From: Armatimonadota bacterium
Lineage (GTDB): Bacteria > Armatimonadota > Fervidibacteria > Fervidibacterales > Fervidibacteraceae
Assembly: GCA_032160945.1 (NCBI GenBank)
Contig: JAVHTL010000003.1
Length of the DNA: 64,000 nt
Direction: 5' to 3' (one strand)
In this document: positions 31,259 to 56,182 of the stretch, one piece after another
Position numbering within the stretch: position 1 is the stretch's first letter
Layout of the letters: every line of letters begins with the position of its first letter
Program-made: the position numbers and the translations under genes
The notes under the pieces: model-generated
What the model saw: the letters and a program-made list of their open reading frames with translations, nothing else
What the model was told of the DNA's origin: nothing
Database searches by the model: none

Positions 31259-31393
31259 TAGGACTTACGCAGTTGATGTCATTTTGTGTAGGGGCAGACG
31301 ATAGTCTGCCCGAAAACATCCTTTATAAAGGGGTTAAAACTGCCCTTGCGGGCGGCTTAGCAGCCGCCCTTACATCCAACTGCGTAACTCTCA
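31259..31393 (+). mobile_element. MITE copy 1 (TIR GGACTTACGCAGTTG) enclosing two inward-facing GTAG REPs
   Basis: TAGGACTTACGCAGTTG...CAACTGCGTAACTC(TCA). Near-identical to 42574-42702 and 56049-56182; the right end is slightly degenerate. Confidence 0.85.
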
Positions 31394-31423
31394 GAGCAAT
31401 TGATTTTTGACGAAGCCCCGAAC

Positions 31424-33667
31424 TCATTCACTGGCGCCTCTTCTCATTTTCTGCTCAGAGTCAAATCGCTCCACGATCGTTCTGGCAACTTGATGGACAT
31501 AACCCGATGGGTCGTTCAATGCTTTTTTGATGGCATCCAACGCAGGTTTTACCTTTTCGCCCAAATGCCTCATTGCGTTGATGGCGTAAAGGCGAACGAA
31601 TTCGTGTTCGTGGCTGAGCAATTTCGTCAAAGCCGCCAAACCATCATCCCATCCCCAATCGCAAATTGCTTGGGCTGCTGCGATTTGAACAGTTGGCGAC
31701 GAATCGTTGAGCATTGCCCGCAAAGTTTCCACGAACTTCTCTCGCTTCGTTTCGTCTTTACATGCATGGTGGATGCTAACAATTGCCCAATAGCGAACTG
31801 CGGGATGCTCATCCTTTAACGCTTGCAAATAAGCGGGAAGTGCCTTCTCACCTTGTCCATCCAGCATCTTGAGTTGCAGCAACCTTTCCAAAACCCCGCT
31901 TCGGTCAATTTCCGTGCGCCAATCGGGAATTGGTTCTGGTTTTCCATCTGCCGAAGGTAATGGTTCGCCAAATTGCCATCTAACTTCGTCGCTGTCATGG
32001 CAACCCAGCCTGCAAGCCTTAGCAATCAAGGTTTCTCCATTTTGCACCGTCACAGGTTGCGTGTAAAGTTGCCAAAGACCTCGCTTGCCGTCGGCATCAA
32101 TGCGGTAGGCAATAGAAGCACCTTCCGTTTCGCATTCCAGAACAATGGTTGTAGCATTATCGGCTCGCTCAACGATTTGCAATTTCGGCGATGCCGTCTT
32201 TTGCCATCTGCCATTCGGTCGCATCATTTCCGTCAACTCAGGTTCGGGGACAAGTCCGACATCGCCGATTTTCTTCATCCATTTGAGAAGTTCTGCTCGC
32301 ATCGCTTCAAGCACAGAACGATATTGCGGGTCATCAGCGAGGTTGCGAGTTTCATGTGGGTCGGATTGAGTGTCATAAAGTTCCTCAACGGGTTTGGTTG
32401 GAATGAAGAAAAAGCGTTGAACTTCGTTGAGTTTCCCTTCAGCGTTGAGCCGTCGCCACTCTTGCATTGTCGGCGTCTCCTCGCCATATCCAACCTCTTG
32501 AGCGTAAGGCAAATGCGATGCAAAGTTGCGGATGTATTTGAACCGCTTGTCACGAACGGCGCGAATGATGTCGTAAGTTTCGTCCATGCGGTCACGGGCA
32601 GCATAAACGAATTTGCGTGGCGGTGATTTTTGCTGTCCAAGAAATGCTTGACCTTGTATGTGCTTTGGGATGGGAACGCCAGCAAGCGAAAGCATCGTCG
32701 GAGCGAAATCAACGAAGGCAATCAAATCCTCAATGACGCTGCCGGGCTTGATGCGGTCGGGGTCATCAGGATATGCCCACTTTCGGAACTTTTCGGGGAT
32801 GCGGATGATGAGCGGGACGCGGATGCCGGAATCGTAAACCCACCGCTTGCCTCTTGGTATTCCAGCACCGTGATCTGACCAGAACCAAACAATGGTTTTT
32901 TCTGCCAAGCCATCCTCTTCCAACTCGCGCAAAATTTCGCCAGCACGAATGTCCATAAGCGTGACAGTGTCATAATGCTGTGCAATATCACGGCGAACGG
33001 CAAGTGTGTCAGGCAAGTATGGTGGCACAGGTGCTTTCGCAGGGTCATGGCGTGCTTTAGATGGCAACGCTTCAATTCGCTTCAAAAGGTTTGGGTCTCG
33101 GCTTCTGAGTTGGCTTTCGTGAGTGACAGTGATGTTGAAAACGGCAAAGAAAGGTTGTTTTAAGTCGGGACGGTTGCGCCAATGTGCTTTTGGACTGCTT
33201 TCATCCCATGCCGTCAATGGCGCTGCTTCAGCACTTGCCGTTGAAATTTTCGGGTCGTGAGCGAAGTTGTAGTCGGTTTTTGCATTGTTGGTGCAGTAGT
33301 ATCCTGCAGAGCGCAAGTATTCAGTGAAGCAGCGAACGAAAGGTGGTGGGACGGCTTTGCAGCGCATATTGTGAGTTCCGATGCTCGTCGGATACATTCC
33401 TGTGATGACGCCTGAACGAGATGGTGCGCAAACGGGTGAGTGAGTGAAAACATTCGTGAACCTAACACCTTCGGCTGCTAACCTGTCAAGGTTAGGCGTG
33501 AACGCATACGGGTCACCAAAACAGCCCAAAGTTGGACCCATATCCTCACAAGTGATCCAAAGGAAGTTAGGTCGCTCAGGATTTTGCATTAAAGTTTCCA
33601 CCTCCAATCCCAAACTTCTGACAAGCACTAAGCCAATTATGTTGCCAACAAACTCCCTTCGCTTCAA
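31424..33667 (-). CDS. Sulfatase with C-terminal small beta-domain and HEAT repeats
   Basis: PNFLWITCEDMG, CAPSRSGVITGMYP (CxPxR formylglycine motif), FWSDHG, ELYDTQSDPHETRNLA, HEAT-like VRYWAI/VRLYAINAM; N-terminal KRREF resembles a Tat motif. Confidence 0.92.
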   Translation of the reverse strand: MKRREFVGNIIGLVLVRSLGLEVETLMQNPERPNFLWITCEDMGPTLGCFGDPYAFTPNLDRLAAEGVRFTNVFTHSPVCAPSRSGVITGMYPTSIGTHNMRCKAVPPPFVRCFTEYLRSAGYYCTNNAKTDYNFAHDPKISTASAEAAPLTAWDESSPKAHWRNRPDLKQPFFAVFNITVTHESQLRSRDPNLLKRIEALPSKARHDPAKAPVPPYLPDTLAVRRDIAQHYDTVTLMDIRAGEILRELEEDGLAEKTIVWFWSDHGAGIPRGKRWVYDSGIRVPLIIRIPEKFRKWAYPDDPDRIKPGSVIEDLIAFVDFAPTMLSLAGVPIPKHIQGQAFLGQQKSPPRKFVYAARDRMDETYDIIRAVRDKRFKYIRNFASHLPYAQEVGYGEETPTMQEWRRLNAEGKLNEVQRFFFIPTKPVEELYDTQSDPHETRNLADDPQYRSVLEAMRAELLKWMKKIGDVGLVPEPELTEMMRPNGRWQKTASPKLQIVERADNATTIVLECETEGASIAYRIDADGKRGLWQLYTQPVTVQNGETLIAKACRLGCHDSDEVRWQFGEPLPSADGKPEPIPDWRTEIDRSGVLERLLQLKMLDGQGEKALPAYLQALKDEHPAVRYWAIVSIHHACKDETKREKFVETLRAMLNDSSPTVQIAAAQAICDWGWDDGLAALTKLLSHEHEFVRLYAINAMRHLGEKVKPALDAIKKALNDPSGYVHQVARTIVERFDSEQKMRRGASE

Positions 33668-33733
33668 TTTGCATCACGCTCCTATGGCAAGGATGGGCAA
33701 AGTTGCCTGCAGAATTCTCTGACGCATTTCGTG

Positions 33734-33742
33734 TGCTATATT
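33734..33742 (+). promoter_or_regulatory. Putative extended -10 promoter
   Basis: TG-C-TATATT about 30 bp upstream of the S9 peptidase ATG. Confidence 0.35.
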
Positions 33743-54602: not shown

Positions 54603-54683
54603 AAGCCACGCTTTTAAGGTCTGAATTTGAACGAATGAGGCAAAATTTTGTTGCCCGTTAGATGTGACAGGTGGGAAGACGGG

Positions 54684-56042
54684 ATGAGAAATTGGCTTGC
54701 TGTCCGTTTGGCTTTGACTACATGTATCGCCATAGCAATTGGGTTCGGATGCGGATTGTTTTTCTCTGTTTTGCTGAAGGTTCCCATTGCCCTTGCAATT
54801 GCTATCCTTGCAATTTCTTTTGCGACGACAGTGATTTTGCTGGTTCTTTCTTTTCCTTCCCTGGTTGAACCAATTCAGAGGCTAACAGTTGCTTTGCAAA
54901 GAGGTGAAGAGCCAAGCAGTTTGCTTTTGCTGGAGTTGGGAACTTTGGGCGAAGCGATTGCAACGGCATGGAGAAGTTGGAATGAAACGGTGGCAGAGTT
55001 CAAAGAAGAGAGAACTTTGCTTCAGGCAATTTTGAAGCGAATGGATGAAGCGATTATCGTTGCCCAAGAGAATGGTGTGGTTATACTCGCCAATTCCGCT
55101 GCTCAAAAACTTTTTCAACTCCCGACCGAATACACAAAAAAGCGACTGACGGAACTGAACTTGCCTTTCAAGTTGATGGAGTTGGCTCAAAACGCAACTC
55201 GCCACAAACTTCCCCAAATAGACGAAATCCACATCGTTCACCCCGATGAAAAGTTCCTTGATACCTATGCAACGCCATTGCTCATTGACGGTCAACTTGA
55301 AGGCGTTTTGCTGGTCGCCCGTGATCTGACGGAATTGAAGCGGTTGGAACGAATTCGTAAGGATTTTGTCGCTAATGTGAGCCATGAATTGAGGACGCCT
55401 ATTGCTACATTGCGGTCTCTTACAGAGGCGCTTTTGATGGGTGGCAAAGACGACCCTGAAGTGAGAGAGAGTTTTTTACAAGCAATCGTTGACGAGGCTG
55501 AAAGGATGAGCAGATTGATTGACAACTTACTGGAAATGGCTCGGATTGAAGCAGGGAGGTGGGAGTGGCATTTGCAGAAAGTCTTGGTCGCCGACATCGC
55601 AAAGCAGGTTATTGAGCGTTTCAAAACCGCCGCTGCGCAAAAAGGCTTGACAATGACTATGAGCGTGGATGATGCTTTACATGTGCATACTGACCCTGAT
55701 GCTTTGACGCAGATTTTGTCCAACCTCATAGACAACGCAGTCAAATACACAATGCAAGGTGAAATCGCTATTAAAGCGCAGCAAGTTGAAACGGTGGACG
55801 GGAAGTGGGTTGTCATTAGCGTTTCCGACACAGGGATTGGCATTCCTCCAGAACATCTGCCCAGAATTTTTGAGCGATTTTATCGTGTGGACAAAGCAAG
55901 AAGCCGACAGATGGGAGGGTTCGGATTGGGCTTGAGCATAGCCAAGCAATTGGTGGAAAGTCTTGGCGGAAAAATCACTGCCCAAAGCCAAGTGGGCAAA
56001 GGTAGCACTTTCTCCGTTTGGTTGCCCGTTGGTGAAACCTGA
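54684..56042 (+). CDS. phoR: PhoR-like PAS sensor histidine kinase
   Basis: 2 TM helices, PAS, RKDFVANVSHELRTP, QILSNLIDNAVKYT, DTGIGIP..HLPRIFERFYRVDKARSR..GG.GLGLSI. Confidence 0.88.
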   Translation: MRNWLAVRLALTTCIAIAIGFGCGLFFSVLLKVPIALAIAILAISFATTVILLVLSFPSLVEPIQRLTVALQRGEEPSSLLLLELGTLGEAIATAWRSWNETVAEFKEERTLLQAILKRMDEAIIVAQENGVVILANSAAQKLFQLPTEYTKKRLTELNLPFKLMELAQNATRHKLPQIDEIHIVHPDEKFLDTYATPLLIDGQLEGVLLVARDLTELKRLERIRKDFVANVSHELRTPIATLRSLTEALLMGGKDDPEVRESFLQAIVDEAERMSRLIDNLLEMARIEAGRWEWHLQKVLVADIAKQVIERFKTAAAQKGLTMTMSVDDALHVHTDPDALTQILSNLIDNAVKYTMQGEIAIKAQQVETVDGKWVVISVSDTGIGIPPEHLPRIFERFYRVDKARSRQMGGFGLGLSIAKQLVESLGGKITAQSQVGKGSTFSVWLPVGET

Positions 56043-56048
56043 AAATCT

Positions 56049-56182
56049 TAGGAGTTACGCAGTTGGATGTAGGGGCGGCTGCTAAGCCGCCAGCAAGGGC
56101 AGTTTTAAAACCTTACAAAGGATGTTTTCGGGCAGACTATCGTCCGCCCCTACACAAAATGACATCAACTGCGTAAGTCCTA
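56049..56182 (-). mobile_element. MITE copy 3 (134 bp, inverted relative to copies 1 and 2)
   Basis: TA-GGAGTTACGCAGTTG ... CAACTGCGTAAGTCC-TA, 6 bp after the phoR stop. Confidence 0.9.

Follow-up and report, generated by a model that had tools for sequence, protein, structure and literature searches.

Three copies of a short nested repeat

We analyzed a 64,000-nucleotide stretch of contig JAVHTL010000003.1 (hereafter the window), which carries three copies of a short, non-coding element of 129–135 bp with a family consensus of 134 bp, very probably a non-autonomous transposable element of the miniature inverted-repeat type (MITE) with a pair of repetitive extragenic palindromes (REPs) as its passenger. 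All three copies are intergenic, and copy 2 is situated upstream of a gene of the phosphotriesterase family. The positions and orientations given by an earlier first-pass annotation, two copies on the plus strand and an inverted third, hold (Table 1).

Each copy consists of a 17-bp terminal inverted repeat (TIR), a short linker, the hairpin REP-A, a spacer of 30–40 nt, the inverted hairpin REP-B, the trinucleotide ATC, and the inverted TIR. The consensus of the left end is TAGGAsTTACGCAGTTG and that of the right end is CAACTGCGTAAsTCCTA. REP-A (GTAGGGGCGGACGATAGTCTGCCCG) and REP-B (GTAGGGGCGGCTGCTAAGCCGCCCG, inverted) share one design, a GTAGGG head, a GC-rich stem-loop, and a CCG tail, and the two units are inverted with their heads pointing outward. 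The nested layout described by the first-pass annotation stands in these respects; the TA, which had been taken for flanking sequence, is instead the outermost part of the inverted repeat, and the right tip of copy 1 is mutated.

Most alignment columns of the element are invariant among the three copies, with pairwise arm identities of 94–100%. The core TTACGCAGTTG occurs exactly six times in the window, at the six element ends, and yields nine matches with up to one mismatch vs. 1.1 expected; GTAGGGGCGG, also with up to one mismatch, is found seven times vs. 1.55 expected, and six of the seven belong to the copies as their REP heads. Both the exact ends and the REP heads, six each, are far above chance. 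The whole unit is predicted to fold into a stable cruciform (−33.6 kcal/mol as DNA, z −6.2; −67.1 as RNA, z −7.3), and an Rfam search of the window found no matching family. No open reading frame (ORF) is confined to the element; one mechanically called ORF (42588–42887) begins inside copy 2 and exits into the flank.

Table 1. Coordinates of the three copies and their parts in the window.
Feature	Position	Strand	Remark
Copy 1, 135 bp	31259–31393	+	between REP tandem array and 3′ end of sulfatase gene
Copy 1 left TIR, TAGGACTTACGCAGTTG	31259–31275	+	exact match to IS701-type end
Copy 1 REP-A hairpin, GTAGGGGCAGACGATAGTCTGCCCG	31288–31312	+	
Copy 1 REP-B hairpin, GTAAGGGCGGCTGCTAAGCCGCCCG	31349–31373	-	
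Copy 1 right TIR, TGAGAGTTACGCAGTTG	31377–31393	-	tip mutated, 2 mismatches: CTCTCA in place of CTCCTA
Copy 2, 129 bp	42574–42702	+	spacer with 6-bp gap; short-read contigs break here
Copy 2 left TIR	42574–42590	+	
Copy 2 REP-A hairpin	42603–42627	+	
Copy 2 REP-B hairpin	42658–42682	-	2 uncompensated changes
Copy 2 right TIR, TAGGAGTTACGCAGTTG	42686–42702	-	
Copy 3, 134 bp, inverted	56049–56182	-	between histidine-kinase gene and DJ-1/PfpI gene
Copy 3 left TIR	56166–56182	-	
Copy 3 REP-A hairpin	56129–56153	-	
Copy 3 REP-B hairpin	56069–56093	+	
Copy 3 right TIR	56049–56065	+	

The first bases of copy 2, TAG (42574–42576), form the stop codon of the ORF 42112–42576 (154 aa, no Pfam match); since the element supplies this stop codon, its insertion may have reshaped the end of the ORF. 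Gene callers on other assemblies likewise place the start of an ORF inside the element.

Abundance, ends, and target duplications of the family

A metagenome scan with REP-A yielded 119 hot-spring contigs (1.03 Mb); the host-like DNA analyzed amounts to 1.1 Mb. These contigs contain 134 REP-A matches, 110 of which have both ends, while the remaining 24 are cut by a contig end or have one side without a recognizable end (truncated or mutated). The copies have a median identity of 97.8% to the 134-bp consensus and vary most in the spacer. Inside copy 2, short-read contigs from the same organism break off, the summed contig depth over the element is ~120–490 times that of its flanks, and in a 2.3-Mb single-organism run, 196 of the 1227 contigs match the stretch around copy 2, most of them matching the element alone. 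These observations, together with the three copies in 64 kb, put the copy number on the order of 100 or higher per genome; the high genome-wide abundance suggested by the first-pass annotation is thus borne out by the depth ratios, the contig breaks, and the 134 further metagenome copies. It is because the element is so abundant that short-read assemblies of this organism break every 10–20 kb. The host-like contigs show 79–82% nucleotide identity to an Armatimonadota metagenome-assembled genome (MAG), and a homologous 125-bp MITE is present in Armatimonadota SKYB17; the host is probably a hot-spring member of the Armatimonadota. In the metatranscriptome run X16 (window 42572–42706), RNA contigs extend from the unique flanks of other copies into the element, and therefore at least some copies are co-transcribed with neighboring genes.

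The 17-bp end pattern was scanned against one genome per species and matched at least 115 contigs. Among the matches listed are Chloroflexota, Armatimonadota, Poribacteria, Cyanobacteria, Planctomycetota, Acidobacteriota, several Proteobacteria, and Methanosarcina and other archaea. Most of the listed matches are inverted pairs 64–290 bp apart with unrelated interiors, and therefore the same ends carry other cargo as well. Autonomous insertion sequences (ISs) with the same ends also exist. The element at locus L115:6950-7989 has a length of 1040 bp, a 327-aa ORF, and a 5-bp target duplication (TACAC), and that at L078:122-1231 has a length of 1110 bp and a 344-aa ORF. Both proteins match the NCBIfam model NF049921, "IS701 family transposase" (E-values of 6e-110 and 2e-111), and Pfam DDE_5/DDE_Tnp_1. 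Further homologues, partial or full, are found next to the end in Chlamydiales, Anaerolineae, Poribacteria, Chromatium, and Beggiatoa, as well as in another Armatimonadota MAG. In Allomeiothermus silvanus, the annotated ISMesi2, whose protein is named "IS701-like element ISMesi2 family transposase" by PGAP, has identical ends (TAGGAGTTACGCAGTTG...CAACTGCGTAAGTCCTA) and a 7-bp duplication (TGGAGGA). Similarly, the end of ISPlag1 of Planktothrix, a member of the IS701 group related to ISMhu9, starts with CAGGACTTACGCA (PMC2464740). The autonomous ISs with these ends contain no GTAG hairpins like those carried by the MITE. Both an autonomous IS with the same ends and the same TIRs around other cargo, which the first-pass annotation had proposed to look for, are therefore found. 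At the small extreme, the elements at L028:~110-145 (~35 bp) and L030:7282-7345 (64 bp) are barely more than two ends placed back to back, and it is possible that such "empty vehicles" are the source from which cargo-bearing MITEs arise.

Target duplications accompany the family. An exact direct repeat of 4–9 bp flanks the element at 39 of the 98 unique insertion sites vs. 1.5 with shuffled pairing, and a 5-bp repeat with one mismatch is found at nine more. When 3-bp repeats are also scored over 100 sites, the lengths are distributed as 26 repeats of 5 bp, five each of 6 bp and 7 bp, one of 8 bp, three of 4 bp, and four of 3 bp. Overall, direct repeats of mostly 5 bp (range 4–8) are present at ~40–50% of the 98 sites. 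In the cross-phylum set, the direct repeat likewise lies directly outside TAGGA...TCCTA and is usually 5 bp (TCCGA, TATTG, CCGAG, CAGGA).

A remnant of the transposase survives in the host-like DNA, where L123:6449-6590 contains one end followed by the last 45 codons, cut by a MITE insertion. Judging by this remnant, the host lineage once had the IS; because only a broken transposase has been seen in host-like DNA, the MITE family may now be stranded there. A segmental duplication of ~360 bp in this contig (L123:4400-4760 and 6280-6640) spans the remnant together with its end and the interrupting MITE.

Source and mobility of the hairpin pair

REP-A and REP-B each have ~143 matches with up to three mismatches in the 1.1 Mb, and all of these lie within the TIR-bounded unit or its truncations; the few matches without a recognizable end are located at contig ends or in copies whose end is truncated or mutated. 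The first-pass annotation had suggested looking for the same REP doublet outside the TIRs, and none was free among the ~143 occurrences of each hairpin. Since the two hairpins are found in the TIR-bounded unit alone, they multiplied as passengers of the MITE. The same 1.1 Mb contains 493 GTAGGG-headed hairpins with a CCG tail, comprising 271 of REP-A or REP-B and ~220 of other families. The latter are free and include families of 66, 39, 38, 24, and 11 copies, plus smaller groups, in outward-headed pairs and tandem arrays of the type known as REPINs (REP doublets forming hairpins) and bacterial interspersed mosaic elements (BIMEs). The GTAGGG head and the CCG tail are common to at least five free REP families of this genome.

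Free hairpins are also present in the window. A BIME-like tandem array at 30513–31128 contains six to seven units of ~92 bp, each with two different opposed GTAGGG-headed palindromes (GTAGGGCGCATGCTCCGTCATGCGCCG and GTAGGGCAGGGGCTCTGTCCC) separated by A-runs, and two mechanically called ORFs (30464–30958 and 30790–31128) cross this array. Further free REP-type hairpins are located at 5780–5960 on the minus strand, 24444–24620, and 50321–50403. The hairpin at 5843 (GTAGGGGCAGGTGAAACCTGCCCG) has the same head and tail as REP-A, and the 83-bp unit at 24444–24526 recurs at 50321–50403 with 81% identity. The window also contains repeats of another kind, runs of a heptamer, (GGGACGN)x3–5, on either strand inside long ORFs (5109–5135, 19758–19770, 50995–51021, 52159–52171, and 53593–53619), with nine matches vs. 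0.02 expected; short-read contigs also end near 50.9–51.1 kb.

Related MITEs carry different hairpins. The sister MITE in SKYB17 keeps REP-A, has a different spacer, and bears as its second hairpin GGCGGATGAAATCCGCC, a REP type found free in the lineage of the host. In addition, the host-like DNA contains a second, low-copy element with the same ends, a different REP pair, and a 5-bp duplication (AAATT). In at least five phyla, MITEs with these ends repeatedly carry GTAG-tagged hairpins as cargo. Such hairpins make up 23 of the 132 GC-rich cargo hairpins (17%) vs. 62 of 3495 (1.8%) elsewhere on the same contigs, an odds ratio of 11.7 for copies that are related rather than independent and a control of mostly coding DNA. 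At the Poribacteria loci, the commonest GTAG hairpin types are GTAGTTGCCCGATT, found seven times inside such MITEs and twice outside, and GTAGTAGCGCAATT, found four times inside and not among the common types outside; GTAG-tagged hairpins overall number 47 inside MITEs and 125 outside. Poribacteria MITEs with the same ends (e.g., L041:6626-6807, L067:3707-3940, and L056:1540-1832) measure 130–290 bp and contain two to six GTAG-headed palindromes (GTAGTTGCCCGATTCATCGGGC and others), a varying number that looks as if REPs accrete inside the element. We tentatively suggest that MITEs with ISMesi2-type ends may recurrently take up GTAG-headed palindromes of their hosts in several phyla and amplify them without a REP-associated tyrosine transposase (RAYT). 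The presence of two host MITE families with different REP pairs and the difference in the second REP between sister species are consistent with this, and a possible route of uptake would be the integration of REPINs into the single-stranded loop of the MITE hairpin. If so, the DDE transposon would provide a second route for the spread and diversification of REP-like repeats.

On this evidence, we consider it highly probable that the element belongs to the IS701 family as a non-autonomous MITE of the ISMesi2/ISPlag1-like subgroup, with a passenger REP pair. The 17-bp ends would be the binding and cleavage sites of a DDE transposase of ~330 aa acting in trans, which would move the whole 134-bp unit and, through a staggered cut of the target, leave a short direct repeat of usually 5 bp. 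The interior is not derived from the transposase gene; its pair of GTAG-headed palindromes, with the heads outward, has the same design as the free REPs, REPINs, and BIMEs of the host. The REP pair may have entered a minimal end-to-end MITE by capture or by insertion, which is the favored route (compare the ~35–64-bp elements in L028 and L030), and would then have been multiplied purely as a passenger to ~100 or more copies per genome.

Several observations weigh against this interpretation. No intact matching transposase was detected by tblastn in the window or in the 1.03 Mb of host-like contigs, and the remnant peptide, compared with 5.8 billion proteins, retrieved fragments of 30–79 aa and nothing longer. 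The three window copies are all without a target duplication (the flanks of copy 1 are CCATA and GAGCA), and about half of all family copies lack one, regardless of their divergence. Empty sites, which the first-pass annotation had proposed as a check, were not found for copies 1, 2, and 3 in contigs from seven distinct public runs, four per site, where the contigs end within the element and none skips it; the power of this search is low because the repeat is where assemblies break. That the cargo stems from REPs is read from its design and from lineage-specific similarity, and no capture event has been caught.

Age, shifted register, membership in larger repeats, and adjacency to REPs were each tested as the reason for the missing duplications, and none explains them; our guess is recombination between the many copies. 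A comparison of the joined flanks from 100 insertion sites against every contig retrieved turned up no empty site, and the sole matches came from a copy inside another tandem repeat. At the orthologous sites of related Armatimonadota MAGs, the intergenic DNA is not alignable, and the same spacer is occupied, in one relative, by a different, minimal element. Because no empty site was found, the mobility of the family rests on the duplications and the copy number.

The alternative that survives best, which we nevertheless judge unlikely, is that the hairpins are not derived from REPs and arose inside the MITE itself, for instance by inverted duplication of a subterminal segment, with GC-rich hairpins being tolerated or useful, e.g., at transcript ends. 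The heads are symmetric to the ends, so that the element reads as an extended imperfect inverted repeat of ~35–43 nt, the whole unit folds into a stable cruciform, and the commonest GTAG hairpin types of the Poribacteria are mostly located inside such MITEs, even if GTAG hairpins overall are commoner outside. However, an origin within the MITE does not account for a GTAGGG head and a CCG tail that five or more of the genome's free REP families also have, nor for the cargo hairpin of the SKYB17 MITE being a free REP type of the host, and the autonomous ISs with these ends are without such hairpins.

A passenger REP pair could also retain a mobility of its own. The first-pass annotation had seen the signals of two mobility systems in one unit, and DDE-type ends do surround a GTAG REP-type pair; that the pair is a live signal for a RAYT is unproven, given that it never occurs without the ends and that no RAYT was found in the 1.1 Mb. 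Under dual mobility, a DDE transposase would move the unit via its ends while a RAYT, an HUH tyrosine transposase, would still cut and move the REP pair. The hairpins have the defining REP design, with a GTAG head, a GC-rich palindrome, and a CCG tail, and their heads point outward as in a REPIN; the genome is full of free REP and BIME arrays, which are accompanied by a RAYT in known systems; about half of the copies have no duplication, as expected from HUH-type insertion; and sister MITEs differ in their cargo hairpins. In contrast, neither hairpin is ever free of the ends in its ~143 occurrences, and the copies without a duplication still have both ends intact.

The search for a RAYT covered all ORFs of at least 80 aa in the window and 230 loci, with E. 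coli RayT (phmmer), the RAYT of locus L042 (jackhmmer), and a hidden Markov model of 120 RAYT homologues as queries. Neither the window nor the host-like contigs yielded a RAYT, and the REP-bracketed ORFs that were listed include none that is RAYT-like; this negative applies to the 1.1 Mb, estimated at about a third of the genome. The same searches did detect the RAYT of L042, an unrelated Anaerolineales locus and the sole match. This RAYT-like ORF (L042:7403-8000, minus strand), with the HUH motif LPNHFHFLV and the motif YIHYNPV, belongs to an Anaerolineales MAG, and a MITE with these ends lies 5.5 kb away. Taken together, dual mobility appears improbable, somewhat more so than an origin of the hairpins within the MITE. 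What does stand is the idea of the first-pass annotation that REPs can spread without a RAYT, as these REP copies multiplied without a transposase of their own.

Far less probable still is that no DDE transposase takes part and a RAYT moves a large REPIN of which the end is just the conserved flank; that the end could be such a REPIN flank had been raised by the first-pass annotation itself. It would agree with the failure to find an intact transposase in host-like DNA, but in bacteria and archaea the identical 17 bp delimit ISs that encode a transposase, elsewhere they surround unrelated cargo, duplications are present, and the host-like DNA retains a transposase remnant with this end. The matching transposases thus exist. 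Finally, an IS630/Tc1-mariner-type MITE with a TA duplication, as the first-pass annotation had suggested and as the TA at both tips of most copies might indicate, can practically be dismissed, because the ends belong to IS701-family elements whose matching transposases are not of the DDE_3 type, and the TA is a conserved part of the end in the autonomous IS701 elements, with variable duplications of 4–8 bp, mostly 5 bp, located outside it.

Relation to known systems

A widespread transposase of the IS701 subgroup may multiply any cargo enclosed by its 17-bp ends, here a host-type REP pair. Two REP variants that have reached some 100 copies or more, showing no trace of action by a RAYT, are a concrete case of REP-like sequences spreading by the DDE route. 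The one point that specialists in mobile DNA may find interesting is that MITEs of this kind repeatedly carry GTAG hairpins in different phyla.

Compared with its closest known relatives, ISMesi2 of A. silvanus, ISPlag1 of Planktothrix agardhii, and ISMhu9, the MITE family of the window has the same short, variable target duplication. However, these ISs are 1.0–1.3 kb in length and encode a transposase, whereas the window element has 134 bp, is non-coding, and has an interior unrelated to the IS. The element resembles the classical bacterial MITEs, such as Correia/NEMIS, RUP, Nezha, and MITEAba12, in its size, IS-matching inverted ends, family-level target duplication, intergenic location, high copy number, and stable cruciform. 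Those MITEs usually have an interior of IS remnants or of anonymous sequence rather than host REPs.

REPINs and BIMEs with a RAYT in Pseudomonas, E. coli, and Stenotrophomonas have the GTAG head, the GC-rich palindrome, and inverted REP pairs (PMC3116915, PMC3333891, PMC3733652), and GTAG REPs have been catalogued in Chloroflexi, Cyanobacteria, and the PVC bacteria (PMC3733652). Unlike these, the pair in the window MITE is bounded by DDE-type ends, its family is often flanked by duplications, its two REPs are not copies of each other, and no RAYT is linked to it. The first-pass annotation knew of no description of the nested design, a claim that a MITE already in the literature weakens: QMITE2 of Coxiella burnetii, which measures 150–190 bp, has inverted ends and direct repeats of 7–11 nt, contains a GTAG REP, and also occurs as small REP-only versions without ends (PMC5896051). 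The two differ in several respects: the window MITE has two different REPs arranged as an outward-headed pair, this pair is never free, and the IS family of its ends has been identified. The element constitutes a new family of MITEs within a known IS group, with a nested design that has a published precedent; the recurrent GTAG-hairpin cargo across phyla and the clear case of REP variants amplified by the DDE route alone may be new.

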